Positions 1 through 60,912 of a DNA stretch of 64,000 bases are shown here, piece by piece. Position 1 is the first letter of the stretch; each line of letters opens with the position of its first letter. This DNA is from Callorhinchus milii (Eukaryota): positions 496,001-560,000 of the forward strand of contig NW_024704742.1 of assembly GCF_018977255.1 (NCBI RefSeq), given 5' to 3'. The notes under the pieces were generated by a model that was given only the letters and a program-made list of their open reading frames with translations, searched no databases and had not been told where the DNA came from. The translations under genes and the position numbers were made by a program.

Positions 1-469
1 TACCCTCGTGCAAATCAGCATCAGCGAGGCTGGCCCAGAATAGCCTCTACGGTATGTTGATGCACCAGATCAGTTGAAAGCCAATTACTCATCTCTAGAT
101 GTGTCACCCACCATTCATTAAGTGACGTTAATGCTGTGTTTTACATTATGAGTTTCCCTCTGCAGACGACTGATAATGTCAAATGGTAATTTTTTCGAGC
201 ATCGAATCTCCCAAAACCCTATTTAGAACTGCATCACTCTCTTCTGGAAGGATGAAATGAAATGGGCTAAAAGGGTCCTTTATATAAAAAAAATCAACAA
301 TTTTGTCTCTGGATAAAGGCGAGACAATAAAAATTTACCCCAATGGACCTTTCATTAGTTCTACGCAAGCACAGATGTCGCCAAATAAGCATTAGGATCC
401 TGTCAAGACTTGCCCATGCACAAACTTCACACTTTCTTTTTGTAGTGTCTTTTCCCTGTATAATCATAA

Positions 470-786
470 CAATAATAATAATCTTTGCATTTGATATAGT
501 GCTTTTCACGTCCTCGAGACGTCTCAAAGCGCTTCACACAATAGACTGTAAAGTGAAATGACTGTATATTTGTGGGCAAAACGCAATGGCCAATTGTGCA
601 CAGCAGCGTCCCACAAACAATCGTGGATTGAAGTGACAAAATTACTATTGTTTTTTTTCTTGAGGGATTATTATCAGGCGGGTGGAGTAAGGAAATGTGC
701 CCAAGGTTTCGCCCTGCTGGGAATCGAACCCAGGTCCTCTCGCTTGCGAGGCGAGTGCTCTAACCACTGAGCTACAAAACTCCACC
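470..786 (-). mobile_element. tRNA-headed SINE with L2-type tail (main family)
   Basis: A/B-box head GTAGCTCAGTGGTTAGAGC...GGTTCGATTCC, shared body, tail ...ATCAAATGCAAGGA(TTA)n. Confidence 0.85.
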
Positions 787-789
787 TGC

Positions 790-1125
790 TGGCAGACTCT
801 TGCCTGCTCCACATCTCTTGCCCCATCCGCCCCACCATCGCCGGTAGCGCCTTCAGCTTTTCTGCCCCCGCCTATTGGAATTCCATCCCACAGTCCCTTT
901 GCCTCGCCTCCCCCCTCCCCCCCTCCCTTATCTCCTTCAAGGCCCATCTCAAGACCTTCCTCTTTGACCGAGCCTTCGGTCACCCTCCTACCCCCATCCC
1001 CCCTCCCTCCACCCCTCCTGATCCCAACCTCCCCAGCTAGGGTGCACATCCGTGACTGCCCAGGGCTTTGGGACGTCCTCCTGACATGAAAGGCGCTGTA
1101 CAAATGTAATCTCTTGTTGTTGTTG
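790..1125 (+). mobile_element. L2-type LINE 3' fragment
   Basis: Decayed ORF2 end (AFS..AP..WNS.P..FK..LKT.LF), C-rich UTR, ACGTC-loop-GAC stem and (TTG)n tail. Confidence 0.75.
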
Positions 1126-3662
1126 GTGGTGAAATCTCGAAAAAGTCCTGGGCAAAATCGTCTGATATTCATCTGCACCTCCTGTCACTAGAGGAGATTG
1201 CAGGCATACATTTCTCATGGTGGTTTATATATGCCTGAAAGTCTGATGTCACTGTGATACTTAGGCAATACTAATATTAATCTTGCCTGTTGATCCCATG
1301 ACACCATTCAGAAAGAGAAAGGAATGTCTTCTGACAATCCTCCGGATTAAATTGTGTTTGCTCGCAAAAACGGTAATTATTTATGAGGTGCTTTACCAAT
1401 GCAATTATTATCACCATTATTATATTATTTATTATTGGACAGCAAGTACAATGTGGAACTTTTCAGCTAGTTCTTTTTTTCACCCAGTTTTAATTGCCTC
1501 CGACCTGCTTATACCCCACTCTGGCTTCCTGCACGTCCCTCATCCCATCCGTTCCACTATCGGCTGCCTTGAGCCTCTGGAACTCTGCCTCAATCCTTCC
1601 TTCCTCTTCGACCAGTAACTTCCCCCCCTCCCTGATTCGTTGTCAAACTCCACCATTGTTAATGGCTCCAAGACGCAACCCCTTTTGACGGGCACTAAAC
1701 AAATGCAAGTTGTTGTTGAAACGTAACGGTTTATTAGGTTAACCAGGATATTAGGTTGTTGGGTTAACCAGGATTCCAGGTTAACTCAACTGGTGTTCCC
1801 CATAGCTCATCCCTCCAGCATCCAAAGCAGTAACGCTGATATATTCCAGGATAGGCAGAGTCATCCCTAAAAAATACCCGCAAGCAGGAAGTCGAGCAGC
1901 CAGTGTCAGTCTCGTCAATCTCACTATCCAGCCAGTTAGAGGGTTATGTGAGTGAATGAGATTGACAAGCTCCTGGCACCCGGCAACCACACAACAGGGG
2001 GAACCGCCTTTGGGCGGAAACAGAGTCATTCAACCCGACCAGTGACTCATGGACGACTGGACTCTGGGCCGTGCTCCATGACATCCACAAGCCACGTGCA
2101 TGTGTCCTTGAGAACCATGTCGTGAGGACATACCGGCTTGTCAATCCCCCGCACAGTAACTCTGAACAGAACCCCGTACACACAGGTCAGGGGTCCATCC
2201 ATCTTTAGTCCGATTCCCATCACAATAATCATCTTTAAAGGCGCAGTTTAGGCCAACGTGATTATTAAAAAAATATATGTATACAAACACAGACAACTAA
2301 ATCAGATAGACGTTGCAGAAATATCATGAAGTATTTATCAAGGTCTCCTTCACGCACTAAGGCCATTAAACGTGAAAGATTATTGTAAAGATTGGCGGTT
2401 AATTAAAAGTAAATAATTCCATTGACCCTCCACTGATGTCTGTGTCACTTATAAAACATAGCCAAGTGTATGTATAGAAAGATACACATGCCCCTCCCTA
2501 AATAACTGCAAACATATCAAGTATGAAAGTGATGGTAGTTATGAGACTCTCATCAGCGGCAGCTGCAAATAATAAACATATGAACAAACAGTGACTCTGC
2601 AGTGATGCCTTAAAGGAGTTTATCATCTTCATCTGGAGCAGCTCAGTGCTAATCTTTCAGGTCCCGTACCTTTCCCACACAGTCAAACAGCTATGGCCAA
2701 GTGTCTCAGCATTCTGAAGTCTGTGAACTGTTAAGGAGCGAGTAGATACAGCCGCCATGAGCAGGTTGCTCAGTTGAGGTATTGTCGATCAGCGTCAGGT
2801 TGTAATTGTCACTTTAAGAAGGTTGAGAAGGGTTTGTTTCTGTCGATCTCCAGAGCAACCTGTATTGTAGCTTCCTACATACTGCCCGGAGCCCTTCCTC
2901 CGCTTGCAGCCTGTTCATCCCCTGCATCTTTAACGGAAGGCTGGCCATTTGGATTGCCATTGCTGTAAGCGTCCATCAGCCCCCGGCTCTTGGGGGAAGG
3001 GCTGTTGTTTAGAGCAGCAGTTAGGGTGCAGTGGGGGGGGGACGGGAAACAGCTCCAATCACAGCCCAGTGTAGCTGCAGGAATCAACGGGATGTTCATC
3101 GAGGAAACGATTGGGAGCGTTCAAAGGGGGTGTCACCGATCCAGAGCAGGGCACAGTGGCCTATACAACAACAACAACTTGCATTTATATAGCGCCCTTC
3201 ACACACAGTAGCGTCCCAGTATAAGCGCTTAATTACGCAGTGTGCAGCACATACATACTGCCACGTGAACACTTGCACTACAATATAGCCGTTAGCACCT
3301 ACAAGTGACTCCAAATGTTTTGAAAGTCTCTATCTGTGCACGAGTGACAATTATTCTTTTTATTGCTTCCAGATTTCATTGGCTTGTTGTTCAGACATTT
3401 TGACCAGGTGCTTTCTGCTGAAAGAGAATATTTGCTCTGGTCTTTCCCGTAAGGAGTGGTGGAGATGCTTTGTCAAAGCTCGAGCTGATCTTGTATTGCA
3501 AACTTATTCAGAGAAACACTCGTATCAGTAGTTACTTAGTTCTGAGTTACTACTCCCTATGTTTCAAAGGTTTCTCAAGACTGATTTATTGGGAGTACAG
3601 AATATCCTTTGTGCTAAATTGAGAGATAAGAAGCTGCAGATATACTCCAAGAGACAAAGATT

Positions 3663-4030
3663 GTGGAGTCTTGTAGCTCAGTGGTTAGAGCAGTCGACTC
3701 ACAAGCGAGAGACCTGGGTTCTATTCCCGGCCCAAGGGCCAAACCTTGGGCAAGTTTCCTTACTCCGCACGCCCCTGTTTACCAGCAGCAAGTAGGAACC
3801 CGGTTGTTAGTCGTTAAGAGGATTGCTTTTCCTGCGGTAATAATCCCTTCAAAAACAATGTGGTCACTTCAATCCACGCCCGTTTGTGGGACACTGCTGT
3901 GCGCAATTGGCTGCTGCGTTTCGCCCCCAAAATACACAGTCAATTCACTGTACACTGTGTCCTGTGAAGCGCTTTGAGACGTCTCGAAGACACGATAAGG
4001 CACTATATCAAATGCAAGGATTATTGTTGC
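3663..4030 (+). mobile_element. tRNA-headed SINE (main family), full length
   Basis: Head, body and tail match the other copies. Confidence 0.85.
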
Positions 4031-4190
4031 TGTTGCGTGCTTAAGAACCAGGCATTGTGTTCATTGTCGCACTTTTGGGGTTTTGTGCAATAGATTCGAT
4101 AACAAGAAAGTGGAATGAGAGAGAACTGTAACAAGATACAATCTGTAGCCACTGTAACTCTTTATCTGCTTGAAACAGCACCGCCTAGAG

Positions 4191-6221
4191 CTGGGGTGGG
4201 CAATTATTTGGGCTGGCGGGCCACTTCATGGGTTTCGGTAAGCTTCGCGAGCCACACACTTAATATATAGATGCAAATGCTTAATACTAGGTCAAAATCA
4301 AGTCTTATACTTGTACATGCATAAAATAAAATCTCTATAATTGACATTCATTGAAATTAGGTTAAATAAAAACAACCTCATTGAGCAGACGTTTATTCGA
4401 CATTTAATTCATTTAGTCACATATTGATGAGAACGTGAGACGCTCACTCAATGGGAAGAATGAAAGCGCTGATGCGCATTAACCAGACAGTTGAAGTCAG
4501 GCATCATCTCCGTTGATGCAATGCGGAGTACTACTGCAAGGTGGTCATTGGTCATCACAGATCTATGTTTTGATTTATTGAATTTCATCACAGAAAATGT
4601 CTCCTCTCATATGTATGTTGATCCCAATGGCACAAGCAGCCTCTGGGCATGAGCCTTTATTTTTGGAAAGGTATTCATTTAGAGAGGTGTAAAAACTGGG
4701 AAGCAGCACTGAATTGAATTGCTCCGCAAGCAATGGATCACATTGCAGGTCAATAAGCTCGAGTTGGAGGTCAAATGGGGCTTTGCCAACATCAGATGAG
4801 AAAGGTGAAGAGACCAAAAGGCAGGTCATTTTCGATCAAATTGAAATCCTGGAATCGGTGAGAAAATTTGGCGTGTAAGTCAAGTAGTGACAAAATTTAC
4901 TTTTTTTAGGTTAAATTTAGGCTTTGATTGCAAACAGTAATCTGCTGCGAAGTTGGAAAGTGGGCGAACAGCCTGTTTCCTATCTGATGCCATGAAAGAA
5001 ATCATTTCATCATAAGGGACTTGACACCGTAATACAAATGGTGCACAAAGATCCCCTTCCTTTGCAGTTTTGAATTCAGTTCATTCATGTGGCCCATGAT
5101 ATCAACGAAATCGGAGCCCAATTCGCATCATTCAGCTGTGGGAAATCCCAATCTTTTTGTTTCATGTCCAAAAATAAATCAATCTCTGCTCTCAGTTCCC
5201 ACACTCTTTTCAAGACCTTTCCTAAACTAATCTTACAGCCGTGTGATACAGAACAGCAGTGCGCTCGGATTCCAATTCCTCAAGCGGAGTTACACATTGC
5301 CTGTGGTTTAATCCTCTTGCTCGAATGTAGTTGACCACTTTTGTAGCTGTGTCCACGACATTGCTTAGTTTTAGAACACTTTTACAGAGGACCTCTTGGT
5401 GGGTAATGCAGTGTAGAAAAACAATATTCTGTTCTGGATTTGTTTCTTTGACTTGATCTTGAATTCTTTTCAGCAACCCAACATTTTTGCCTGTTAGATT
5501 TGGGCTTCCATCGGTGGTCAAGTTCACCAATTTTTTCCATTCCACTCCTAATTTTAAGATACACTTATTTACTGCCTCCAAAAAGTTCTTCTCCAGTTGT
5601 CGTATCTTTCATTGACTGCATTGACGCCAATTCTTCTGTGAGCTCAAAATGTCTGGTGATACCTCGAATAAAAATGATCAACTGGGCTGCGTCTTTGACA
5701 TCACAACTCTCACCGAGTGCCAGTGAAAAACCTGCACCATTGCTTACTTTATTTTGTAACTGCACACTTTTTATTTTCTTTCTTTATTTTATTTTTAAAT
5801 TTATTTTTATTTTATTTATTTTATTTGTTTTGTTTTTCCACCCACGCTGGTTAAAAAAAGAAATATTTAGAAGTCCATTCTGTGCGGAATATTCGGCCTT
5901 CAGCGTCCACTTTCCGCTTCTTTGATAAACTCATTTCGAATTAACGTCCTCTTCAGTGAAAAGTATTGCCGCGCTTGCTTGAAAATTTGCCGATCCGTAC
6001 ATTCCTGATGTCAGCCCTGATTCAACAATTAAGGGGGCTGCGCACAACTAACCCGTGTGATTGGGCCGATGTTCCCGGTCTGATTCAATTGCGAAATTTG
6101 CGGGACTTTCTGGGACTGAGCGAACTATAATTTTTTCTATTGCTGGACACAATGACCGGCCGGATAGAAGCATTTGGTGGGCCGGATATGGCCTGTCTGG
6201 GCTGTGTTTTGCCCACCCCTG
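4191..6221 (-). mobile_element. hAT DNA transposon (Charlie/Buster, SPIN/GTF2IRD2-like), internally deleted and defective
   Basis: TIRs CTGGGGTGGGCAA ... TTGCCCACCCCTG; degenerate 8-bp TSD gcctagag/gtctggac (NTCTAGAN type); transposase remnants inside. Confidence 0.9.
4448..5934 (-). pseudogene. Frameshifted hAT transposase pseudogene
   Basis: N-terminus MSLSKKRKVDAEGRIFRTEWTSKYFF; FSLALGESCDVKDAAQLIIFIRG; TTDGSPNLTG; HCITHQE; C-terminal dimerisation region ending ...HQRFHSSH*. Several frameshifts, and an A-rich gap at about 5767-5836. Confidence 0.88.
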
Positions 6222-6629
6222 GTCTGGACGGTCACAGCTTGGTAGCATCTAATAAAGATTCTGAGAAGGAACAAAGTTGTTTTTTTTTTAGCCCCTTAAC
6301 GTCTCAAAGCACTAGACAGCTAAGTACTGTCAAGTGTAGTGACTGTTTTTGTAGGCAAATGCAACAGCCATTTCCATCAGTAAGGTGCCACATACACAAT
6401 GTAAGGGTTCAAGAGGAAGTGCAGAGGAAAGCAGTGAGGCTGATCTCCAGTGACGGAGGGAACAATTAAATAAACTGTAGGTCTTCAGCCTTGAAAAGAG
6501 ATTTCCCACAGGGGACCCAATAGAGTTATATTAGATACTAAATCAAATTGAGAAAATGAGCTCCGAACTTTCAGATACGTCCAGACAGGAGACCGTAGGT
6601 TCAAGGTTCTGGAACAAGAGAAATGTGTA

Positions 6630-6935
6630 TTTATGTAGCACCCCTCATACAGGGTAGCGTCCCAGAGCGCAAGAGATTGGTGAAAGGCAGACACCAGAAA
6701 GTATTATTTACACCCGGGGTAATGCGTAGCTTCCTTCTCTTTTTGAACAGTGCCAGGGCATATTTTAACGTCCCATTGGACAGGCAGATGGGACCTTGGA
6801 TTATCCTCTCACCCAAAACACGGCATCTCTAACAATGTACCCCACTCTCCTCAGCACAGCGTTGGAGTGTGTTCAAAGTCTTGACTTGAGACCTGACTTG
6901 GAGGCAAGAATGCTACCAGTTGAGCCAGGCTAACA
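6630..6935 (-). mobile_element. Deu-domain SINE, diverged
   Basis: Reverse complement of CAGCCTGGCTCA..TGGTAGC head and the GTTAAA.AT.CC.TGGCACT.TTC core. Confidence 0.6.
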
Positions 6936-7949
6936 CTTGGTTTGAATGTAAGGAATGCCTTGCAATGACATGCTTTGCTAGAATGATACCTGGATTGATA
7001 TGTTAGGTTGGGTATCTCTCTCTTATCTTGACCTGATTTCAAGACTGAATGAAGCAAGATCTTTCAGTAATATAAGCCAAGAGCTCTCATCTCAGCACGG
7101 AACAATAGTCTTGTCCCATATATATTTTTCCTCCGTCGCTGCATATCTCCCTTGAGCTGGCCTGGAGAATTGGTAACAAGTAACGTCGATTGTGTTCCGA
7201 GTTATGATGAGGTTTGACACGTGCCTTTTTATTCCTATTTGAGAAGGAGAACTTTGCCTTTGTATGTTCCTCCATCTAGTGGCCTAGACAAGAACTGATA
7301 AAGGTGGCCCCCTGACTCATTCAGCGCTCAATCGAGTACATTGGGCAAGTTTTATTCATTGGGCAGCCTAGTTAATAACATTTTTTTACAACAAACTCTA
7401 GAATATCAGTCAATACTGTACCATTCCTTTACTCTGTCTTTCCACACACATAGTTGTAGTTTCTTGTTTCTTCATAGGCAAACACCCTCTGTGTTACATT
7501 TAGAGAAGGGAGTTTCTCCCGGTGTCCTGGCCAAGAATCTCCCAAATAAAATTGGTCGCTCATTCTATGGCTGTTTGTAGAATATTGCTGTGTGCGCAGT
7601 CACTCCACTTAACAGTATACCCTGTGAAGCACTTTCAGAAGTCTCTACGACGCGATAAGGCACTATATCAAGTGTAAGGATTATTATTATTATTTGAATA
7701 GCCCTGTAAATTCCAGGGACTTTCCTAATCTGTTATTTATCCAGTTCTTTACTTATGCCAAATTATTTTGTATCTGTTTCATTGAACTATTATTATTCAG
7801 TGGGGTGGAGAGAGCGGTGTGAGGTGTGAGGCTTGTTTGAGACTTATTCGCTTTGCAAGTCAGTCAGGAAGAGAAAGGGAAAAATAGGTTAAATGTTCAC
7901 CTGAACTTTATTGAGCTGCTGACCGACCTGTTGGGGACATACAGCCAAT

Positions 7950-8560
7950 ATGATCAGGCAAGTAATTATAGACCAGGTAGCTTAACATCCACAGAGGGCA
8001 AAACTTTAGATGCTGTAATACAGGGTAATATTAATAACCACTTAGAAAGTTGATCAATGACAATCAGGATGGAGTTGTTAAAGTCAAGTCTTGCATGACA
8101 AATCTAATAGTTTTGTGAGGTTTTTTTTTGATGAAATAACCAAGATATTAGACAAAGGTAATGCTGTGGATGTATTATGTATGGATTTCCAGAAGGCTTT
8201 TTCACAGGAGGCATGTTAAATTTAGGGAACATGGTATTAATGGAAAGGTAGCAGCACAGATAGAAAGTTGGTTAATGGATAGGAAACAGAGTTTGTTATT
8301 TGGCAATAGAGCGATGTAACTAGTGGTGTTTCCCAGGGGTCAGTGTTCGGACCAGTACTTTTCTCCATTTATGTAAATGATCTGGATTACGATGTTAGGG
8401 GCACAATTTCTAAATTTTCAGATGATACAAAAATAGTGTAACTATAGTAAAGATTGTGAGCAGTTTCAGGGGACATAGACACTAGAAAATTGATTGGGAA
8501 AAAATGGCAAATTTAATTTAATGTAAGGATTATTATTATTATTCCATTTTGGGAGGAATA
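7950..8560 (+). mobile_element. CR1 LINE reverse transcriptase fragment (decayed)
   Basis: NYRPGSLTS, KSC.TNL, DKGNAVDV..DFQKAF, SGV.QGSV.GP.LF.IYVNDLD and SKFSDDTK motifs, with frameshifts. Confidence 0.85.
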
Positions 8561-9519
8561 GTAACAAAAAAAAACCCCTTAAGTTTGGCTATAGTGCTTT
8601 CCATGTCAGGAGGATGCCTCAAATCACTTCATAGAATATTACTGTAAAGTGGAGTGACTATGTGTTTTGTAGGTGGAGGTTGGCAGCCAATTTTGCTCAC
8701 AGCAATGTCGCACACGCAGCCATGGAGCAAATGATTTGTTTTGGGGAGAATTGTTGGCCGGGGCATCAGGAAAAACGTCCTTTCCTTTTTGACTAGTGCC
8801 GTGGGAACTTTGCTGTCCATCTGAACAGGCAGACGGGACCTCGGGTTAATGTCTCATCATGATTCTGGGTTGTAAAGTGCTGTAAATTTCTGTGCTTCTA
8901 ATGATTACATTGGCATTGTTATTAATATGAAGTGTGCCACAAGACGTGATGAAACAACCTGTATGATCATGTAAACAAATACACTGTACTGGGTGATTAC
9001 TGGACTGTAGTGCCCAGCTGTTCCTGTATGCCTCTGGTCATTTAGCTCACAGAGGCACTGGCCGGGAGTGGGAGTGGGAGTGGGGGGATTGCATTTGATA
9101 AAATTCCTGGGTACGCTCACTCCCTGGACATTAGGAGAGGTCAGGATTAGGCTTGGCTGGATTTCAATGGTCTATAGCCATCAGTGTCACCTATAGAACC
9201 TTACTTACCCCAGTAAAGGTCAGTGCCTTAAGGACGTATCGGGAGGGTTTAAAGAAAATGCATCTTCGAAACTCATGTAATTTTCAGGTTCTCTCCACCA
9301 TAATGTGACCAAATCAGAAATCCAGCGCTGCGAGACATTTCTAAGTGCCATTCTTCAGTAAGCTCATAGGATGCATGTGAGAATGAACTAGGGAGACGGG
9401 AGCACCAGTATTGACTCTGGAAGATGTGTGTTTCAGTATTCACCCTGGCAGGTGTTGTACAGACATATGACCAGTGTTCATTCCAGCAGATGTGAGTTCC
9501 AATGTTTTTGATAGAGCTC

Positions 9520-9808
9520 CTTATCACGTCTTCGAGACGTCTCAAAACACTTCACAAAATATACTGTAAAGTGAATTGACTGTATATTTTGTGGGCGAAA
9601 CGCGACAGCCAATTTCGCACAGTGGCGTCCCCAGAAACAACCGTGGATTAAGTGACCCAATTTTTTTTTAAGGGATTATTACCCCTGGAAAAATATCAAC
9701 TAACAACCGGATTCCTACTTACTGTTGGGAAAGAGGGGCGTGTGGGAATCGAACCCAGGTCCTCTCGCTTGTGAGGCGACTGCTCGAAACATTAAGCTAC
9801 AGGACTCC
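9520..9808 (-). mobile_element. tRNA-headed SINE (main family)
   Basis: Reverse complement of family head, body and tail. Confidence 0.8.
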
Positions 9809-10579
9809 TTGGAGATTAGGTACAGCCAGAGCCCCAGATTTCAAATGTTTACCCTCCTATGGAGAAATCAGTTTCTGCTTGATTCAGATCAGGATCTTGT
9901 CGTGGGCGATGTTTGGGTTAGTCTCACATCTACTGCTAATCCAGGATTCAAGACTTATGTCCTTGTGTCATTTTTGAACAAAAAAAAACTTTATTTTTAA
10001 TAGGTTTGCTGCTTAATTTAGAAGCTAAGCAGCCAACCTATAGGCTGGCAAAAGGTGTCAAAAAACATAGGTAGTCTTGAAAGGTGTAAACGTAAACAAA
10101 ATGGGAAAAATAAGAGAAAAGGCAGGTCAGGTGAGTAACAGAGATTTGATCCATAAGTGTGTATCTGTTGCGAAAAAAGAGGGTGAGGGGCAGGTCTGAA
10201 GAATTATTCTGGGATAAATTCCAGTGATGATTTGCACCCCATGAAGTATTCAGCCTAAAGTGCCAGGTTAAAGCATTGCAGAGAATAGTGATGTGCGTTT
10301 TATTCTCGATTGTTTTCCCTTTGGGACAGGGTGGTCTAATTGGTGGCCCTCATTCCCCATTCAGTCCCTCGGTCAGAGAAGCCAGGAGATTGGCCTTTTC
10401 TGGGTGTCAAACGTAAATAGAGTAAATCTGGCCCCAGGAGGAATTTCTCCCCAAGTCTTCAGAATCAAACCGACTTTAACAATGACAGCTGGTACGTTAT
10501 ACCATGTCAACGTTTTTATTTGAAAGTTTTTCGTCCCAAAAAAAAAGATACCATAAGACAAAGGAGCTCATTTGAACCG

Positions 10580-10604
10580 TTTATTTAAATAACAAATATT
10601 AAAT
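10580..10604 (-). terminator. Candidate distal poly(A) signal with adjacent AUUUA motifs
   Basis: Minus strand reads ATTTAATATTTGTTATTTAAATAAA; it ends a 2.1 kb stretch below the stop codon with no recognisable interspersed repeats. Confidence 0.4.
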
Positions 10605-12734
10605 ATGGCAAATAACTGTAAAGCAATTTACACAGAAAGATCAGCTGTGTCTGAGATAGCTTATTCCAGAACGCAAGCCAAAGCTATGTGGTACATTTAC
10701 TGTGTGCAATAAGAGAATGCAAAGTGTGAACTGTATACAGTACATTCTGTGACAATCATTGTTCCTTCTTAATAAACACAATTAACCTGAGACAGTATCC
10801 AGCAAATGGGAATATCTAATCACATCTGTCAGTACAATGCCGTATTCATTGCCATCGTATTCTCTTCACAAACATAACCATTCCCAATGAATTGATGGCA
10901 AAACAAACCGTATGATTGTAGGCACAAGGTTACGTATGATATTGACTTCATGCCATGTCTTGAAATATTACAACATACTGTGGAACCTTTCAGCAACCAC
11001 AGCAAAAAAAAATATTCATTGCAATACCTACAAGGCCCGGTTGGCGGGGCTCAGACTGTAACATTTATGCTGAGATCCACTTGCATACTGAACACGTTGA
11101 GGCTGGGTGGTAAGAGAGTGAGTCGCCAACATGTGGCAGCAACAGCTGCTGAGATCTCTCCAAACAGAAACAGTGAAAGTCCCCCCAAAAAACCTCTGCT
11201 CAAGACAGAGCGGGTTCTCGATTCAGTCACCCGGTCAGAGTAGCCAGGGTGTCAAACGACACAGAAAGTGCGGGTTTAACGTAAAGTGTCCTGTGTCAGG
11301 GGACAGGTAGATACAACCAACCCACAAAAGGTGCCACAGGGCACTTGCTGCCAATCTCTCCCTCCCCACAAACAGAAAGGTCAGTTGTGTCTCACAGAAT
11401 TCAAGAGGAAATCGATGAATGAAAGTTTTGATGACTCAGATCAGTGCAGATAAGCAGTGGAATTTGTTCTAAAATTTAGAAAAGTGAAAATAAGCACATT
11501 TTCTCAGGACATCAAAGGTCAAACTTCCACTCCAGGGGTTCGCACCGACTGCAGTGTGCCCCGTGACTCTGTCCTGTCCTAATCTTGACCGTGAGTGACC
11601 TGAGCGCTTCGTGACAAGTGCCTGAATTGTGTCAATTGGCTTTTTACCTTGATCCAAGTTCATCGCATTCAAGGACACGAAAAGCCAATTGAACCCCATC
11701 AAAGCGCATCCCTCTGGAGATGGATGCTGCCTTTTTGACATGTTTGAAAAACTGGACCCTTAAATAATATTCAAAAGATCATTGCATTTCCCTCCCCCTC
11801 CCTCCTCCCAAACTGCCTGTAACAGTTACACTACAAGCTGACAGCACATGCTTTACAGAAAGTTTACAGAAAGTATAAATACAGTAAACCTCACAGACTT
11901 ATGCGAGTCTTACTGTACAATAGCTCCATATGCTCCACGCATTAACGTATCTTTAAGAAAGTTAGCTTCGGCTCGTCACAATTAAGATTTTTCTGTTTGC
12001 TCGAGCAGCAGTATTTGCGTATTGAAAAATAAATTAAATCATTCATAAGGCTAGTGTTAGGAATGTGGTTGACAACTATATGATCATGAGAACTTCAAAT
12101 ATCCAGAATAAAATGTGAGTGTCTGTTACACCCGAAGTCTAAGAATAAGATGCATTCTCATGCTGATCCTGTGCAGAAGGACTTTCTCATTAATCAAATT
12201 AAATCTGGTCAATTGACTAGGATAGCTTCAGTAGCACAGATTGAATGGGGTTAAGAAGCAAAACCCAGTAAGATGTCGCGTCACAGAATTGAAAGGTAAA
12301 ACGATAAGAGAAAGTTTTGATGACGCAAATCGGTGCGGTTAAGCGGGCAAATTTGTACTAAATTTGTTCACTTGAAATGAGAAAGCCCCATGTGTGCACA
12401 ACAAGACCGACACACCAGTACATTTGACATTCAAAAGTGTTTGACAGATCACACAGATATATGATATCTGCTCCAATACACAGTATTTACGTTTTGAACA
12501 AAAATCATACCTTGATTAGAATGCATAACTGAAGAGTAAAAGCATCGTCATGTAAAGCTATTTTCACAAATATTGCTGTGTTAAGAGTTCCTTAATAGAT
12601 AATAAATAATAATATATAATATTAACTGTTAAACTCGAGTGAGTTGAATTATAGGTTCTTCCATTTGGAATACGTCACAGTGGCTTGAGATGTCCATTCA
12701 ATGTCGGTTACATTTTTTAAATGCTTGGATGTGA

Positions 12735-12743
12735 CTACAAACC
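12735..12743 (-). CDS. IL2: Putative IL-2-like terminal exon 5, coding part (Gly-Leu-stop)
   Basis: Branch-like ctaat and pyrimidine tract cccatttctctctcag, then GGT TTG TAG in phase 0, followed by AU-rich sequence. Confidence 0.6.
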   Translation of the reverse strand, partial: GL

Positions 12744-15700
12744 CTGAGAGAGAAATGGGTTTTATTAGACATGAAGAACAACAGTGGTAATCAGTGTAAG
12801 CAAATATACAATAGAGCCCTGTTATAGAGGGCTTCTTTATAACACGGGTTTGCATATAACATAATTGGGTTGTGGATCCTGACTTTCTCTGATCTAAAAA
12901 TCCCAAATCCTGATATTGTGCCAATGAAATCCATTGCAAGTCGCGCTTGAAATCCAGTTGTCGCCGTTCATGAAGCATCATTGCAACTGGGATCCACTCC
13001 AGTACTGTACATGGAGCAATATCTGAGCTCAGTATCTCACCCAGAGAGCCTCCAACGATAAATCCCTTTCCGGGATAGGTTAACTCCTCATCAGTACACT
13101 TCACGGCAGGGATTGAAATGGAATGTCAGCACAGATGTTGGGTGTGTAGTAGGAGGAGATTAATTTCCATCCTTAATAGGCAGTTAGTGGACCAACGCTT
13201 GACACGTAGAGTAAGACTGGGCTCTGTCACTTTATTGGAGCCGAATGAAACTCCAGCCTGATTTTTCGAGGGAATTATGATTTCTTTAGATATAGGGATT
13301 GGCCTGTGTATTTCATACATTTAGGAATTTTTAAAATATTTTTACTGGTATTATTTCCCTGAATTTACCCATATGACAAAGTGGGGCTCAAAATATATAT
13401 TGTTTCTCTTACCTTGACAGCTGCATGGAATTTCTTTTGCAGATGTACATAAAATTGATTCAGGAACTGTTCGAGGCTGTTCTTCATGTAATTTTCACTG
13501 TTGGGGCAGTCGATCTGTGGAATAAACCAAGATTTACTCCTTTTGTTCAAATGTAAATATATCTTCAATGCAGAATGGTGATACGAATCATTTTGTTTTG
13601 TTCAAATCATTGTGTATTTGTTTGCCCACAAAAACACAGTCACTCCACTTCACAGCAAATCCTTTGAGGTGCTTTAGTATATTTGTCTTCCCGACGTGAA
13701 AGCCGCTATACTGAATGCAAGGATGATTATTATTATTCAACAACAGTCTAGTGATCTAAACCGGAGCTGTGGGAATGTAACAAAAAGGCAGCCGTGTATT
13801 AAAGCAAATTTTAACTTCCAAGATCAGACTACTCCAAAGGGTGTTTTACGAGGGAACAAAGATCCCTCGTTGTAATAAACAACCCTGTGTATCACAAAGC
13901 TCCTTTGCCTTTAAATTCATATGAGTTTCCCCACTTCGAAAAGTATTTTGAAACTTACATTTAAAAGGTTCAGCTGTTTTGCTTTTCTGTTCAGTTTTTC
14001 TACGGTATTAATTTGCATCCGGGATTTCTTGAGGCCTTTTAGTTCGGCCATGTAACAGGAAAGGTTATCCTAAAGAGGAGACAAAAGCAAACAAGACTGC
14101 TCAGCATTTTTCAAATACTAAATGTGCTATGTGTTTCAAAATACAAGTGTAACATATACCCTTTGAAATCAGCTTACGCTTAGAAATGTACAAGAAAACA
14201 ACAACAACAACAAGATTCCATTTATTGAGCACCTTTCACGTCAGGAGGACGTCCCAAGACGCTGTTTATAAGAACATAAAACATTAAAAGAGAAACTCAA
14301 ACTCAGTACAGACTGGGATTTAAACCAGCGAGATCCTGGTCTGTATAGTGAGGATCTGTCCAGTATGTTATCAGTCCCCTTTCCATTCATTCTTAGAGCC
14401 CTGCCCACTAAATCTCCTGAGGCAATTTTCTGCATTAATGCTACGAGTATTCCATCATCTCAATTTGTTTCCTAAAACTTTGAACCCTTTCCCAACAATA
14501 CATTGATCTAATTCCTCGTTGGATCTAAAAAAAAAGCCCAGTGGTTCAGGTTACCTGAAAAAGTAACGTGCAATCATTTCCATTTGTTGTAAAACTGAGA
14601 TAGTTAAGATGGCTAAGAATTAATATTAGTGAACACTTTAATCTGCAATAGCTTTAAGAGGGGAAAATAGATTAAGATGCATAGCTGATGGCCATTAAGT
14701 TCCCCATGCCATATAGGAGTCTATTAGGAAAGCAGGGCAGTGGCTGAGATACATACAGGACGGGCGAGTATGTGTGACTTTCACTTGGGTTCAGGCAGTG
14801 GGAGTTCAATGACAAAACGGTGTGTCATATTGGTGTGTTGAATAAAATCCACCGAGTCATCAGCAACTCGAGCAGAAACTTCCGATTGACAGAGAAGAAA
14901 CCGTGCTCTAACACAAAGGCAGCTTGCCTCTTTTCCATTAGTTATGAGATTTAGAGTAACACCAAACTATCGCTGACCAACTTCAGTGAACTTCCTGTCT
15001 TACGGTGGTTTGTTCAGTCTGCTGACTGTGCAGGAACTTCTGACTAAGCGCTAAGCGCATCGAGGACTATAGTTATCTTCCTGACAATGTCATGTCACGC
15101 AGACAGAACTGCTCTCATGTTTTCTGGTGCCTTGTTTGTGGCCCCACAACCTGCTACAGAAAGGAAAAAGCCCCTGATAGATAGGAAGTGGGGGATCCCC
15201 TGACAAAAAAAAGTTTCCGGATTTATTTACATAATACCACCGGTTGTCAATTGTTCAGTATGTTCTGTAGTTTGTGAAAAGCCAATAAGAGTCTTTAGTA
15301 CAACAACAACAAATTACACTTGCGCCGCACCTTTCACATCGGGAGGACGTTCCCAAGGCATTTGACAGTCAGGGATCTGAACCAGAGCTGGGGGTTGGGA
15401 TCAGAAGGGGTAGAGGGAGGGGAGGGGAGGGTTAGGATGGTGACCGAATGCGCGGTTGAAGAAGAAGGTCTTGAGACATGCCGTGAAGGAGGCGAGGTAG
15501 GGAACGAGGCGAAGGGATGTTGGATGGACTTCCAAAGGGTGAGGGTGGAGAGGCTGAAAGCCACGGGGGCGAGGGATGTGGATCAGGCCGGAGCCTGTTG
15601 AGTGGAGGGAGCTGACAGGTCGATATAGTATTAAGTTATACTGAACCACATTCCTGTCAGACTCAATAATAAAAAATTCACCTTCATGGCCCCAGACTTA

Positions 15701-17886
15701 ACAAGTTGCGATATGAGTATCTCTTCCAAAGGGTATTAGAGAAAGGGTTGACTGGTATTCTCAATGAATTAAGACCGAGCTATTTGATTTGGAGGAAGCT
15801 CCATCTGCCTTTCACTGATTACTCACAAACAAGTTGGTTCTCACTGTTGCTTTTTAACGCCCACAACAAACACAGACTGTGTAGAGCAGCATTGTGTTGG
15901 TTGGGCTGCACTACAGAGACACAATGTCAAACTATAATTTGCAATTTGCAAACGTAAAGGAGGAGGAAAATGTGCAAAAAAAAAATAATACTATCTAACA
16001 ATCATTAAGGTTTGGGATGACAGTATGAACCATTAATTTTGTTATTTAAGCAAATTAAGCATTTCAATTTAATCTTTTCTCTTATTGTGGTAGCAAAATT
16101 TACAAGATTACTTATGCTTGACTACAACACATGAAATAAGACTCCTAGATTAAACGTTCTCCACTAACTTTGTGTTGTGAAATAGACTAAAAGAAGATCA
16201 TACCAAATTAAACTAGCAAATAAATTGAATTTCAGGGAAGATTGAAGGATCTTGTAAGGTAATAATAATAATAATCTTTTAAATTGTCTTCAGCCTAGAT
16301 CAAAAATTTAGTCGACCCTTTTGAAATATAATTTAAAAACTGAAGTTTCAATAACATCATGCTATGGTAGCAACTCTATATAGATTATATTTCTTACTCT
16401 TTCCAATGCTAAATAAGTTGTAGCTTATTGAGATTCAGGACTAGCTCCTAAAAGCAGCTCTTGAATTTCTATTGCAGTTAGCTTAAAAGATTGCTATTTT
16501 CTGAAAGGGATATTATTCAAGTAGATAAATACAAGCGATCATTTAAATATTCTGTGATCTTTTAAGTATTCTAAGTGCAACTAGATGCATCTTTGAACCT
16601 TTTAACAAGCACACCGGAAACACCTTCTTCCTTCCTGTGATTGCATTCAACTGATAAACAGAAATACAAATTTAAAGATAGTGAATATTTTTTAATTCAG
16701 CATTATTTGAATAGAGAAATTACTTAGTGAAAATTTATGTCAATGAATTGCCCGTCAACCTTTACATCTTTCTATGAATTAAATAATTTTAAACCGGAAG
16801 ATGTGCTTCCACCTACAATGGATGTGTGTGTCCAAATCTCACAGTACTATTTAGAATAGTTACAACATAATAAGATGTGAGAAAAGTGCTTTGCCACTGG
16901 GATTGCCACCTGCAGTCCGTTTACTTGAGTGAGATGTTGCAATTAGGAAGTATTCACTGAAATACATAAACATACCTGCCAAAAGCAAGCTAAGAAAACT
17001 TTCTAACATTAACCTCCCCCCCGACTCTGAACCACTGAACTCTTGCCACCAAACAACACAAATTACTACGACTTGCGTCAGAAAAAACAAGGGTGATTCA
17101 CCGGCAGAATGATTAGGTAATATCACAAAGTATGCAAACTTTCAAACCCCTCAGCTCAGTTTGATGTCCATTTTCTGCCTTTCTATATCTATTTTGCTTC
17201 TCTCCTTAAGTTGCCTTAAAAGTGATCCAACCCTTAGCAGCTCTGGAGTGCAGTGCGTGTGACAGACGGGAATGGATCGAATACAATGCAACATTCTGAC
17301 TCACCCACTTTCAAAATGTCAATGTTGATTTTTTTTTTAGTCTTTCGCTTCTGAGCGTTTAGAAAGTGGAGATCTCTGAGAGCGGCTTTTCACATTGTGC
17401 GGCTTCTCCAGCCCCAGTTATGAAATATATGTCCAAATATGGATTAGCATTAGCCATCAAGCTATCAGGAACTGCAGATAAGACCTGACTATTGGTGGTA
17501 TATTCGGCCGTGGTCAGTCCTCGCTCCTAAGCAAAGCAGCATTGACTAGAGATGTGCTGATGTCTGTTACTACAACACAAAACCAAGCAAAGTGTACTTA
17601 CCAATTTGCTTTCTGTAGTGCGAACTGTAACGCCAGATTGCTGAGAAAATAAGGAGGTAAAGTCAGACTCTAAGTTTCATTCTATATTGAAACGAAAACT
17701 ACCGACAAAAAAAAAGAAAATCCAACGCGATGATGTCTCATTGCAGAAACTTACCCCAAACATTTTTTTCAAATTTCGGACATCCTTCATCATCTCTTTC
17801 AGAACCACATGATCACGTCTGGGAGCTGCATGAAGAACAGCAATGAAAGCAGCGAGGATGAAGCTGTAAAAGATGATCCTGTTCAT
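12735..17886 (-). CDS. IL2: Interleukin-2-like cytokine (IL-2/IL-15/IL-21 family), spliced CDS join(17886-17755,17640-17602,14069-13959,13514-13413,12743-12735), 130 aa
   Basis: Manually assembled exons, all with canonical GT-AG sites and phase-0 introns. 20-aa signal peptide followed by AP, as in IL-2. Helix A Asp (KEMMKDV), helix B LSCYMAEL (cf. IL-2 LQCLEEEL, IL-15 MKCFLLEL), helix C NTVEKL (cf. IL-15 DTVENL), helix D QFLNQFYVHLQK with the family's conserved Gln. Confidence 0.85.
13413..13514 (-). CDS. IL2: IL-2-like exon 4 (CD loop + helix D, 34 aa)
   Basis: Acceptor ggtttattccacag; IDCPNSENYMKNSLEQFLNQFYVHLQKKFHAAVK; donor AAG|gtaaga. Unspliced read-through would stop at 13365. Confidence 0.88.
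13959..14069 (-). CDS. IL2: IL-2-like exon 3 (helices B and C, 37 aa)
   Basis: Acceptor ttttgtctcctctttag, donor gtaagt; 111 nt open frame DNLSCYMAELKGLKKSRMQINTVEKLNRKAKQLNLLN. Confidence 0.9.
15300..15600 (-). mobile_element. L2-type LINE 3' fragment in IL-2-like intron 2
   Basis: AFSLSTLTLWKS...; (CAA)n tail; GGGAGGACGT stem-loop. Confidence 0.75.
17602..17640 (-). CDS. IL2: IL-2-like exon 2 (AB loop, 13 aa QSGVTVRTTESKL)
   Basis: Acceptor ccttattttctcag, donor gtaagt; 39 nt, phase 0/0, a typical short second exon. Resembles IL-15 TLYTES. Confidence 0.88.
17755..17886 (-). CDS. IL2: IL-2-like exon 1 (signal peptide + helix A, 44 aa)
   Basis: acacaATG start; MNRIIFYSFILAAFIAVLHA|APRRDHVVLKEMMKDVRNLKKMFG; donor GGG|gtaagt; 132 nt. 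Confidence 0.9.
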
Positions 17887-17988
17887 TGTGTCTGTGCTGG
17901 GCTGTTAAACTCACAGGCAGTGGTTATGAGTTCTTCGTAAAGAAGACTTGATTGAATTGAGAATAGTACCTACTACAGATGGAATGGC

Positions 17989-17998
17989 ATATATATAT
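17989..17998 (-). promoter_or_regulatory. TATA box of the IL-2-like gene
   Basis: ATATATATAT run about 105 nt upstream of the ATG. Confidence 0.6.
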
Positions 17999-17999
17999 T

Positions 18000-18370
18000 C
18001 TTGTTGGGAAAGGTAAGGCCCTCCCATTTAACATTTTGGAAATGTTTCTGAAACACTCAATGAGTAATCCTTTTCTTTTCCAGTGGCAAGGTGTACGTAC
18101 ATACATGCGCGTGTGTGAGTGTGTTTGTGTAGGGGGGTGGAGGATAGGAAGCACAAACCAGCACTAAGGCAATCTCCATATTGGGGTTAGGGAAACAAGT
18201 GAAAGTGGTAAATTCCCACTGTAGACCAGCACGATACAGCTTGAGAACCATCATCACCTCACTCCTAGCTGGAAAATGACAACAGTGTTTTCATTTTGAT
18301 TTTCCATATCGCATTACCTGTCCAATCAGTCAAATTTCAGTCATATCTGAACTTGTGAAATGAGTAATTC
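18000..18370 (-). promoter_or_regulatory. Inducible T-cell-type proximal promoter (NFAT/AP-1/kB/IRF-Blimp1-like motifs)
   Basis: TGGAAA cores at about 18037, 18076-18082, 18270 and 18300-18306; AP-1-like TGAGTAA at 18061 and 18361; kB-like GGGAATTTACC 18207-18217; AAGTGAAAGT 18197-18206. Confidence 0.55.
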
Positions 18371-19544
18371 TGTATGTGTGTCATGTGCAGGATTTTTTTT
18401 TATTCCTATCTTATGCTAGTGCAGAAAGTAGTTGTCACAGTGAAAGGGAGAGGCCAAGACCTGAACGATTGAAAGGTGCATTTTAACCTGACTTTGAAAG
18501 GATGCTGAAAAAGGTTTTTTTTGAAGGACGAAATATTGACAATATTTCAGCTGCGCCGGTTCGAAAAGAGAAAACTCTTTGACTAATTGTTGGGGGCCAT
18601 TAGAGTTTGTAAATTGTTATGCAATTCATGAAATAATTTGCTTGTGATTCATATTGAAGCCTGATATCTGTGGCAGTGTTTAACGATCTCGTGCAGATGC
18701 ACTGAATCGTGAATGAACTCGATGGAGACCAATGATAGAAAAGTAACCACTGTTTGTCATTTGTATACATCACCTCTGCCATAGTGTTAAACCCACCAAG
18801 TTTTCCTTTAACCCCTTTCCCCCCATGTTGTGTTTGCAGTCGTTTCAATGCAACTTTGAAACAACAGGTACAATTCACACACTTTCTTCAAAGGTTTTTT
18901 TTTGGCGGGGGTTAAAGTTAATTTGTTGGGACTCCATCCCTCGCTGAAGCCCTGTTTTTCCAGCCTTGGCTCACTGCAGTATTTAATTTCAGCCAAAATG
19001 GATTGGTGACATTGCCATGAGATACAGATGATTTAGCATCTGTGCGACTGTGGTTACCTAACACCGTGCGGTCTTTTACAGAACTTCTCTCTCACCCTTT
19101 GTATCATGATGCAGTTTGTCCATAAAATACACAGTCACTTCACGTCACACTGCATCCTGTGAAGCGCTTTGAGACGTCTCGAAGACGTGATAAGGCGCTG
19201 TATCAAATGCAAGGATTATTATTATTTATTTTACAGTTGACATCTTTGTTTTCAGTTTTATTTCGTTAAACGTTTCGTAGGAATACTCCCTGGGTTTTGA
19301 TTCTTGATATTGGTTTATTTGACATTGGAAAGAGTAAAAAAAATATAGAGTATGCTCTACTCCGAGTAGATAGCACAGCACGTTAGTTTTTAAATTATAT
19401 TTCAAACTAGTTGACTAATTTTTTAAACTAGACTAACTTCAATTTAAAAGAATCGTACTCTTTCCGAAAACATAATGCAGGTGAAAACCAGCAGATGATG
19501 AAATGTTATTTTTGACAAGAAGACTATTAAAAGACTATTAGAAA

Positions 19545-32794: not shown

Positions 32795-33188
32795 ACAAAC
32801 AAACAAACAAATAAATAAATAAATAATCCTGGCTGTTGATATAGCGCTTTTCACGTCTTTTAGACGTCTCAAAGCGCTTCACAGAATATACTGTAAATTG
32901 AATTGACTGTATATTTGTGGGCAAAACGCGGCAGCCAATTATACACAGCAGCGTCCCACAAACAGTCGTGGATTGAAGTGACCAAATTATTATTGATTTT
33001 TTTGAAGGGATTATTACTCCCGGAAAAGAGATACTCCAAACGACTAACAACCGGGTTCCTACTTACTGCTGGTAAACAGAGGCGTGTGGAGTAAGGAAAC
33101 TTGCCCAAGGTTTGGCCGTGCCGGGAATAGAACCCAGGTCTTTCGCTTGTGAGGCGAGTGCTCTAACCACTGAGCTACAGCACTCCAC
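32795..33188 (-). mobile_element. tRNA-headed SINE (main family), full length
   Basis: Well-preserved reverse-complement copy. Confidence 0.85.
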
Positions 33189-37959: not shown

Positions 37960-38352
37960 AGTCCTGTAGCTCAGTGGTTAGAGCACTCGCTTTGCAGCGA
38001 GACACCTGGATTCAATTCCAGGCAGAGGCGAAACCTTGGGCAAGTGTCCTCACTCCACACAGAGCCTAATAATAATCCTCCAAAACAAAACAATAATAAA
38101 TTGGTCATTTTCAATCTACGACTGTTTGTGGGACATTGCTGTGCGCAATTGGCTGCCGCGTTCGCCCACAAATATACAGTCAATTCACTTTACAGTGTGT
38201 TCTGTGAAGCGCTTTGGGACGTCCTCCCGACGTGAAAAGCGCTATATCAAATTCAAGGATTATTATTATTATTATTCTGTGAAGCGCTTTGAGACGTCGA
38301 GAAGACGTGAAAAGCGCGATATCAAATGCAAGGATCATTATTATTATGATGA
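37960..38352 (+). mobile_element. Young SINE subfamily copy with a duplicated tail
   Basis: Near-identical to the 56317 and 60455 copies; second tail at 38276-38352. Confidence 0.9.
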
Positions 38353-56316: not shown

Positions 56317-56639
56317 GTGGAGTCCTGTAGCTCAGTGGTTAGAGCACTCGCTTTGGAAGTGAGAGACCTCAGTTCAATTCCAGGCAGAGGGCGAAACCTT
56401 GGGCAAGTTTCCTTACTCCACACAGAGCCTAATAATAATCCTCCAAAAAAAAACAATAATAAATTGGTCATTTTCAATCTACGACTGTTTGTGGGACATT
56501 GCTGTGCGCAATTGGCTGCCGCGTTCGCCCACAAATATACAGTCAGTTCACTTTACAGTGTGTTCTGTGAAGCGCTTTGGGACGTCCTCCCGACATGAAA
56601 AGCGCTATATCAAATGCAAGGATTATTATTATTATTATT
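56317..56639 (+). mobile_element. Young SINE subfamily copy
   Basis: Near-identical to the 37960 and 60455 copies. Confidence 0.9.
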
Positions 56640-58205: not shown

Positions 58206-58530
58206 GTGGAGTCCTGTAGCTCAGTGGTTAGAGCACTCGCCTTGCAAGCGAGACACAGGGTTCGATTCCAGGCAGGGGGCGAAACTTTGGGCAAGTTTCC
58301 TTACTCCACACACCTGATAATAATCCCTCCAAAACAAAACAATAATAAATTGGTCATTTTCAATCCACGACTGTTTGTGGGACATTGCTGTGCGCAATTG
58401 GCTGCCGCGTTCGCCCACAAATATACAGTCAATTCACTTTACAGTGTGTTCTGTGAAGTGCTTTGAGACATCGAGAAGACGTGAAAAGCGCAATATCAAA
58501 TGCAAGGATTATTATTATTATTTTATTATT
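58206..58530 (+). mobile_element. Young SINE copy
   Basis: Intact A/B boxes; anticodon-like arm CTCGC-CTTGCAA-GCGAG. Confidence 0.9.
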
Positions 58531-59627: not shown

Positions 59628-60912
59628 AATAATAATAATCCTTGTATTTGATCTAACACATTATCAAGTTATTTTGCGAAGTCTTAAAGCACTTCACAGG
59701 ATATACTGTAAAGTGATTGACTGTATTTTTTTTGTGTGTAGGCGAAATGCTGCAGCAGAGCAATAATAATAATAATAATAACCGTTGCATTTGATATAGC
59801 GCTTTATCACATCTTGGAGACGTCTCAAAGTATATACTGTGAAGTGAATTGACTGTATATTTTGTGAGCGAAACGTGGCAGCCAATTGTTCCCAGCAGCG
59901 TCCCACAAATAATAGTAATAGTAATAATCCTTGCATTTGATATAGTGCTTTTCACGTCTTCGAGACGTCTCAAAGCACTTCACAGAATATACTGTAAAGT
60001 GAATTGACTGCATAATTGTGGGCGAAACGTGGCAGCCAATTGCGCAGAGCAGTTTCCCCACAAACAGTCATGGATTGAAATGACCAATTTATTTATTTTT
60101 CTTGAGGGATTTTATCAGGCGAGTATTATCAGTGGAGTAAGGAAACTTGCCCAAGGTTTCACCCTACCGGAAATCAAACCCAGGTCTCTCTCTGGCAGAG
60201 CGAGTGCTCGAACCACTGAGCTACAGGACTCCAAACAGTCATGGATTAAGTGACCAAATTATTCTTAGATTTTTATTGAAGGGATTATTACCAATTTTAT
60301 TTGGGGGATTGTTGGCCAGGATACCGGAAGAAACTGTTCTCTTTTCGAATGCTGCCACGGGATCTTTAACATCCACCTGAGCAGGGAGATGGTTTAACAT
60401 CTCATCCGAAAGACGCACCTCCAACAGAGCAACAACCCCCAGCACTGCATTGGAATAATAATAATAATAATAATAATCCTTGCATTTGATATAGCGCTTT
60501 TCACGTCGGGAGGACGTCCCAAAGCGCTTCACAGAACACACTGTAAAGTGAATTGACTGTATATTTGTGGGCGAACGCGGCAGCCAATTGCGCACAGCAA
60601 TGTCCCACAAACAGTCGTAGATTGAAAATGACCAATTTATTATTGTTTTTGGTTTTGGAGGATTTAGGCTCTGTGTGGAATAAGGAAACTTGCCCGAGGT
60701 TTCGCCCTCTGCCTGGAATTGAACTCAGGTCTCTCACTTGCAAAGCGAGTGCTCTAACCACTGAGCTACAGGACTCCACCAGGAGTCATCGTCATGTCAT
60801 GTACAGGAATGTCATCGTCTGAGACTATGTGATTTCAAGTGCCAACGTGGGGTTTGAATCCACAACTTTCTGACTCAGAGGGGAGAGCACGGCCCCTGAG
60901 CCAGGCTGACAT
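59628..60912 (-). mobile_element. Nested SINE cluster (Deu-SINE with two younger SINEs and stacked tails)
   Basis: Deu core 60240-60452 with its head at about 60800-60912; young SINEs at 60455-60779 and about 59908-60232; extra tails at 59628 and 59762. Confidence 0.8.

Follow-up and report, generated by a model that had tools for sequence, protein, structure and literature searches.

The 64,000-nucleotide stretch of the Callorhinchus milii genome analysed here (hereafter the window; assembly GCF_018977255.1, contig NW_024704742.1, positions 496,001 to 560,000) holds on its minus strand a probable small gene for a predicted secreted protein, the coding sequence of which begins at window position 17886 and passes through four exons, after which two alternative 3' ends can be read. 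This gene is very probably a real member of the IL-2/IL-15/IL-21 cytokine group, while its identification as an IL-21 orthologue ('IL-21-like'), real but poorly conserved, has in our estimate an even chance of being correct. IL-21 is a helper-T-cell signal for the selection of B cells, and IL-2 acts as a growth and regulatory-T-cell (Treg) signal.

Exons and the two candidate 3' ends

The exon borders were obtained by direct reading of the region and by script location of the borders on the minus strand. Exon 1 (17886-17755, 132 nt) comprises the ATG, the signal peptide and the predicted helix A (44 residues, 1-44) and ends at a GTAAGT donor. Exon 2 (17640-17602, 39 nt) is a 13-residue loop exon of phase 0-0 with the acceptor ttattttctcag and again a GTAAGT donor. 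It is followed by intron 2 (14070-17601), which extends over 3.5 kb and carries interspersed repeats, and by exon 3 (14069-13959, 111 nt), which supplies helices B and C (37 residues, 58-94), likewise in phase 0-0, between the acceptor tctcctctttag and a GTAAGT donor. Exon 4 (13514-13413, 102 nt) presents the acceptor tttattccacag, encodes the CD loop and helix D (34 residues, 95-128) and is followed by GTAAGA from 13412. All four exons are open and of a length divisible by three, every intron is of phase 0, the acceptors are pyrimidine-rich AG and the GT-AG borders are strong, so that the reading frame is unbroken through the four exons. Exon 3 cannot be extended upstream, as an in-frame TAG overlaps its acceptor. 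The sequence-only reading had described a leader and helix A in one exon, a tiny second exon and phase-0 introns, in line with exons 1-4.

The signal peptide has its hydrophobic core at residues 3-18 and small residues at -3/-1, with cleavage placed after A20. The mature four-exon product would comprise 107 residues (~12.6 kDa, calculated pI 9.9); the four-exon product contains C62 and C97 as its only cysteines, and exon 3 bears a net charge of +5. A crude Chou-Fasman scan marks the stretches 28-35, 63-69, 83-90 and 120-128 as helix-prone, with an uninformative run statistic; the fold expected of the group is an up-up-down-down four-helix bundle.

Two endings can be proposed. In the first, exon 4 is read through for 15 codons past GTAAGA (13365..13412, minus strand) to a TAA at 13367-13365, which yields a four-exon gene of 143 residues with the usual family layout (open reading frame (ORF) 13365-13601); an AATAAA lies at 13236-13231, 129 nt past this stop. 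In the second, a putative exon 5 (12743-12735, minus strand) adds two codons (G, L) and a TAG. Its acceptor is the best one downstream of exon 4 (11/12 pyrimidines), but an AATAAA at 12766-12761 precedes it by 18 nt, which makes it odd as a coding exon. We regard the two endings as equally good. Of the five phase-0 exons proposed earlier for a 130-residue product, exons 1-4 are open, in phase 0 and bounded by GT-AG, while exon 5 is putative. Directly 3' of exon 4 and on the same strand lies a 158-residue open frame (12652-13125) that has no Pfam match and overlaps 12719-13054, a low-depth contig of the sequencing run X1 discussed below; it is probably a chance frame or 3' untranslated region (UTR).

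Probable membership of the IL-2/IL-15/IL-21 group

Exon-like segments of this kind are not rare. When segments were filtered for an AG preceded by 12 positions with eight or more pyrimidines, an open frame of 30-150 nt and a GTAAG donor, the window yielded 22 in phase 0, whereas 20 shuffled sequences gave 12.6 on average and 20 at most; splice-like segments are thus common and splice sites alone prove little. This frequency, together with the absence of any Pfam match, speaks for there being no gene at all, merely chance open segments with splice-like borders. We consider that explanation very unlikely, given that the series opens with an ATG exon encoding a signal peptide and three more exons follow in order within 4.5 kb, carrying the family landmarks in family order, and that a blind search of the Protein Data Bank (PDB) gave IL-21 only, at the last helix. 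In that search exon 4 was compared with 177,635 distinct PDB sequences and at E<=10 found two matches only, both of them interleukin-21 (2oqp/3tgx, E 0.17, 15 bits; 8ent, E 0.22). Although weak, the match places residues 2-31 of exon 4 on residues 93-122 of the 134-residue IL-21 chain, where its CD loop and helix D lie, 11/30 residues being identical, and the IL-2/IL-15/IL-21 group had been predicted ahead of the search. The case for the gene rests on exon order, signal peptide, family residues in the matching exons and this blind match, and the membership in the group proposed by the sequence-only reading is supported.

The protein-database searches queried contiguous translations of single exons, with or without read-on. 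Exon 1, mature exon 1 and exon 3 matched nothing in the PDB, and Pfam (including IL2 and IL15), the hidden Markov model check named in the sequence-only reading, gave no match with single exons at E<=10. Word-based searches of 5.8 billion protein clusters (longer proteins only) returned two candidates for exon 1, two for exon 4 with its read-through and six for exon 3 with its intronic read-on, none of which scored, and HMMER with exon 4 against 1.84 billion representative proteins gave 0 matches. A sequencing run presumed to be of RNA (X1) contained 0.12 of the words. Its contigs (17801-18205, 18362-18529, 14454-14672 and 12719-13054, depth 3-5) touch the flank and part of exon 1, one intron, and sequence downstream; it showed no joint at any of the proposed splice sites and no cover of exons 2-4, and the joints listed all lie within repeats at 14.2-16.3 kb and are also present in the DNA run. 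This coverage is no evidence either for or against splicing or expression.

The criteria for the family and an exon-wise alignment (Fig. S6A) are available from Dijkstra et al. (Immunogenetics 2014, PMC3894449). Here and below, statements on the alignment refer to the rows examined; residue mapping and identity counts were made by eye on that published manual alignment. The IL-2/15/15L/21 group has in common two cysteine pairs, L-X-T-P, F44, D/E89 and Q108. Y28, E47 and D/E54, which bind IL-15R-alpha, are kept in IL-2, IL-15 and IL-15L and absent from most IL-21; D11 and N65 are the IL-2R-beta contacts in IL-2 and IL-15, and E/Q7 with R68 is common to IL-21, IL-4 and IL-15L. IL-21 has an additional last coding exon (4b), IL-15 has the extra leader exons 1a/1b, and IL-15L has an additional N-/C-terminal cysteine pair. 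Mammalian IL-2 has lost one cysteine pair and D/E54, and cysteines have also been lost in other accepted members, turtle IL-2 and stickleback IL-21 as well as mammalian IL-2 (PMC3894449).

The candidate shows a leader plus the four consensus exons, all in phase 0, and the landmark residues occupy the exons in which the family carries them. Exon 1 holds E31 at E/Q7 and D35 at D11, while exon 2 has R51, and no tyrosine, at Y28. In exon 3, C62 and Y63 correspond to C43 and the aromatic residue 44, E66 to E47, S73 to D/E54, K82 to N65 and R85 to R68. In exon 4, C97-P98 corresponds to the first cysteine of C-P-x-C, S100 to its second cysteine, E101 to D/E89 and Q120 to Q108. Aromatic 44, D/E89 and Q108 thus have counterparts in Y63, E101 and Q120, and exon 2 has V-R-T-T in the place of L-X-T-P, in which the threonine is kept, leucine is replaced by valine and proline by threonine. 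The residues D35, C62, E66 and Q120 singled out by the sequence-only reading are present as it described, with D35 (=D11) and E66 (=E47) aligning with IL-2/IL-15, and its motifs TVRTTES, NTVEKL and QFLNQF are located where it had put them.

Assignment within the group

The IL-21 assignment draws in part on the receptor contacts. Two of the three IL-15R-alpha contacts are absent (Y28 replaced by R51, D/E54 by S73) and only E47 is kept, as E66; nor does 13400-17760 contain another exon 2 with an aromatic-Y-T-P motif. The E/Q7 and R68 pair, not unique to IL-21, is present (E31 and R85, by comparison with the IL-21 rows), and at position 65, where IL-2 and IL-15 have asparagine, K82 shares its lysine with the human IL-21 row. 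The architecture agrees with that of human IL-21 (2OQP, 3TGX, 8ENT) in that a leader and helix A in exon 1 are followed by a small exon 2 and that exon 4 opens just before C-P: two residues precede its first cysteine, compared with 1-3 in the IL-21 rows and at least four in the IL-2 and IL-15 rows. Helix D shares the pattern F-L-x-x-F-x-x-x-L-Q-K then x-x-H with IL-21, and its end in the candidate, L-Q-K then x-F-H, resembles the exon 4a/4b junction of IL-21. Mean helix-D identities (of 25) are ~8.8 for eight IL-21 rows, ~7.5 for four IL-15L rows, ~6.4 for five IL-15 rows and ~5.8 for six IL-2 rows. The protein is basic like IL-21, the charge of exon 3 lying within the range of +3 to +10 seen in four IL-21 rows; three counted IL-2 rows range from -5 to +1 and human IL-15 has -3, while zebrafish IL-2 exon 3 was read as strongly acidic and left uncounted. 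The sequence-only reading had favoured an IL-2 orthologue, which is not the best reading of these data: IL-21 alone gave a scored match, the L-Y-T-P tyrosine and acid 54 are absent, and E31 and R85 fit E/Q7 and R68.

Several features weigh against IL-21. The scored match, at E 0.17 and 15 bits, is a weak one confined to one exon, with exons 1 and 3 silent in the PDB and no exon matching Pfam. There is no GT after Q120-K121, so that the candidate lacks the intron which all complete IL-21 rows have directly after L-L-Q-K; exon 4 continues for seven codons beyond L-Q-K to GTAAGA, a putative donor. Exon 3 starts ~5 residues short of IL-21, with the TAG over its acceptor precluding an extension. 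The two cysteine pairs typical of the group, both of which are kept in 11/12 IL-21 rows, are reduced here to one cysteine of each pair, C62 aligning with the later of the two exon 3 cysteines and C97 with the first of exon 4, and no alternative exon 3 with a double-cysteine start occurs at the locus. D35 at D11 has no equivalent in the IL-21 rows of human, chicken, painted turtle and zebrafish, and E66 at E47 recurs in 1/12 IL-21 rows, that of the frog. In helix B, finally, the candidate shares 6/12 residues with the IL-2 rows of chicken, painted turtle and zebrafish, including the Y-M-A-E of painted turtle IL-2, and mean helix-B identity is ~4.7 for nine IL-2 rows versus ~2.7 for seven IL-21 rows.

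The D11 and E47 counterparts and the helix-B likeness would be accounted for if the gene were instead a fast-evolving IL-2 orthologue from which one cysteine pair and two of the alpha-chain contacts have disappeared, partly as in mammalian and turtle IL-2, an alternative that we rate as rather unlikely. Mammalian IL-2 also lost a cysteine pair and D/E54 (PMC3894449), cysteine loss is shared with turtle IL-2 as well, and the read-through ending allows a four-exon gene in which helix D runs to the stop. With the non-mammalian IL-2 rows (chicken, turtle, gar, zebrafish) the candidate shares D11, the C-Y-x-x-E-L start of helix B and the possible four-exon layout. Helix A is a tie, being identical at 7/16 positions to painted turtle IL-2 and equally to painted turtle IL-21. 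Against IL-2 stand the replacement by R51 and S73 of the L-Y-T-P tyrosine and acid 54, found in all non-mammalian IL-2 rows; the change of N65 to K82 although D11 is kept as D35; the presence of the E/Q7 and R68 pair; and a basic exon 3, in contrast to the acidic one of three IL-2 rows out of four, the remaining row, from frog, having +1. The short exon 3 and the single cysteine left of each pair count against IL-2 as well as against IL-21. The PDB search gave no IL-2 although many IL-2 chains have been solved, and helix D, with its IL-21-like end, has fewer identities with IL-2 than with IL-21. The 12.7 kb downstream of the gene yielded no TENR/ADAD1 exon, a weak argument since that neighbour could lie further away.

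The mixture of IL-2-type and IL-21-type residues admits two further explanations. In one, which we judge improbable, the gene would not be a one-to-one orthologue of IL-2 or of IL-21, but a paralogue of the pair restricted to this lineage, much like teleost IL-2L, or a copy in recent decay. The mosaic of residues, the atypical cysteines, one from each canonical pair, an exon 3 that at 37 residues is shorter than every Fig. S6A row read, and the lack of a relative in the three word-based protein searches or among the 1.84 billion representatives are all consistent with such an origin, while the intact four-exon frame with strong splice sites argues against it, as does the lack of a second family gene in the window. 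For the latter, tblastn with the four-exon product gave a best non-self match of E 1.3, and motif scans found exon 4 itself plus two implausible helix-B-pattern matches beside stops; both methods are insensitive at such divergence. In the other, a similarly doubtful proposition, the protein would be a mosaic that combines the helix-A aspartate and helix-B glutamate of the IL-2/15 type with the E7 and R68 of the IL-21/IL-4 type and has lost alpha-chain binding, whether as a true shark IL-2 without a high-affinity alpha receptor or as an ancestral-like IL-2/IL-21 form that uses IL-2R-beta-type and IL-21R-type chains. If true, it would bear on how Treg-type help and help of the follicular helper T cell (Tfh) type first separated.

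That the gene could be IL-15 or IL-15L seems to us extremely improbable. N-T-V-E-K-L does match the T-V-E-N-L of human and opossum IL-15 helix C, the F-L-x-x-F pattern is present in helix D, the helix-D exon has 9/25 identities each with zebrafish IL-15L and gar IL-15, and the cysteine-aromatic pair of helix B, D/E89 and Q108 are shared. However, the leader is not split into exons 1a/1b, the complete leader lying in exon 1 as the sequence-only reading had argued in setting IL-15 aside; the CD loop reads C-P-N-S-E-N-Y instead of the acidic C-E-E-x-E-E; no cysteine outside C62 and C97 could form the N-/C-terminal pair of IL-15L; and L-Y-T, with the alpha-chain tyrosine, and E54, kept in both IL-15 and IL-15L, are absent.

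Predicted function, precedents and genomic setting

By analogy with its family, and taking the gene as IL-21-like, the product would be a secreted, basic short-chain four-helix cytokine with a mature mass of ~12.6 kDa, presumably made by activated T cells. E31 of helix A and R85 of helix C would bind a private IL-21R-type chain and Q120 of helix D may recruit the common gamma chain, with signalling expected to proceed via JAK1/JAK3-STAT. An alpha chain is probably not needed: with neither the key tyrosine nor the second acidic residue in place, presentation by the sushi-domain IL-15R-alpha is unlikely. A single unusual C62-C97 disulfide would stand in for the two of the family. Upstream of the ATG, a putative proximal promoter and 5' UTR (17887..18100, minus strand) is outlined by weak consensus matches only: TATATA starts at 17997, 111 nt 5' of the ATG, and GGAAA (18081), TTTCC (18042 and 18011) and an AP-1-like TTACTCA (18067) lie further upstream. 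These matches might fit, weakly, a T-cell-activation promoter, as would apply to IL-2 and IL-21 alike.

Elephant shark 'IL-21-like' and 'IL-2-like' genes were reportedly put forward by Dijkstra in 2014 in Nature 511:E7 (cited in PMC6238376, PMC7658486 and PMC4690019); by their description they resemble the present gene in kind, being divergent and overlooked by automatic annotation. IL-2 and IL-21 were initially considered lacking in cartilaginous fishes and later found by hand, the putative elephant shark IL-2 and IL-21 orthologues having been identified by Dijkstra, while searches of the catshark gave no IL-2 and a putative IL-21 that grouped with IL-15L (Redmond et al., 2018, PMC6238376). 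Expression of elephant shark IL-21L is very low, with counts of 3 in spleen and 2 in intestine (PMC4690019). In the nurse-shark single-nucleus study of Matz et al. (2023), Il21 had to be added by hand, as it was absent from the annotation of the whale shark (PMC10529500). The suspicion voiced in the sequence-only reading that the gene may not be new is therefore well founded, IL-2-like and IL-21-like genes being already known in cartilaginous fishes (PMC6238376, PMC4690019). A limited literature search, which such a paper may have escaped, found no characterisation of an IL-21 or IL-2 protein from an elasmobranch. The kind of gene is thus known already, and what is unusual here is the cysteine pattern together with the mixed receptor-contact residues, which lead to testable predictions on receptor use. 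A correctly placed and named gene model would allow expression studies in the species to score IL-21 (or IL-2). The picture that these cytokines predate the jawed-vertebrate split is unchanged.

The order of genes in bony vertebrates is TENR(ADAD1) - IL-2 - IL-21 - centrin - BBS12, with 62-164 kb between IL-2 and IL-21 in gar, turtle and human and 8-78 kb between IL-2 and TENR/ADAD1 in the species listed (PMC3894449 supplement). A Pfam scan of 413 ORFs of the window, comprising all 318 of at least 60 residues and 95/476 of 40-59 residues (those in 1-12,515), detected no neighbouring gene. Its four matches, all below the Pfam cut-off, are RVT_1 together with DUF2997, HSP70 and Orf78, the last three being likely due to chance. 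The window looks like the gene-poor setting expected for the locus. The RVT_1 match (8310-8438, plus strand, E 2.3e-05) is in a short open frame downstream of the cytokine gene that is a decayed long interspersed nuclear element (LINE) fragment.

Intron 2 contains highly repeated short elements at 14186-14264, 15300-15404 and 16256-16279. In the DNA run the summed word depth rises to ~76,000 at 14010-14260 and is high at 15265-15766, compared with a single-copy depth of ~10-12, and a 27-nt head is common to 14229-14255 and 15327-15353; these elements are probably an abundant interspersed repeat, which we take to resemble a shark-typical one. A single N is present in the assembly at window position 24522. 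The Rfam tRNA model has eight matches of 30-64 bits in the window (709-781, 3673-3731, 9735-9806, 33113-33184, 37967-38021, 56325-56387, 58210-58263 and 60709-60771), and ARAGORN calls four tRNA genes, three tRNA-Ala, which coincide with Rfam matches, and one tRNA-Gly (60159-60230), which does not. Most of the tRNA matches are probably the heads of tRNA-derived short interspersed nuclear elements (SINEs), while that at 709-781 could be a real tRNA-Ala gene.

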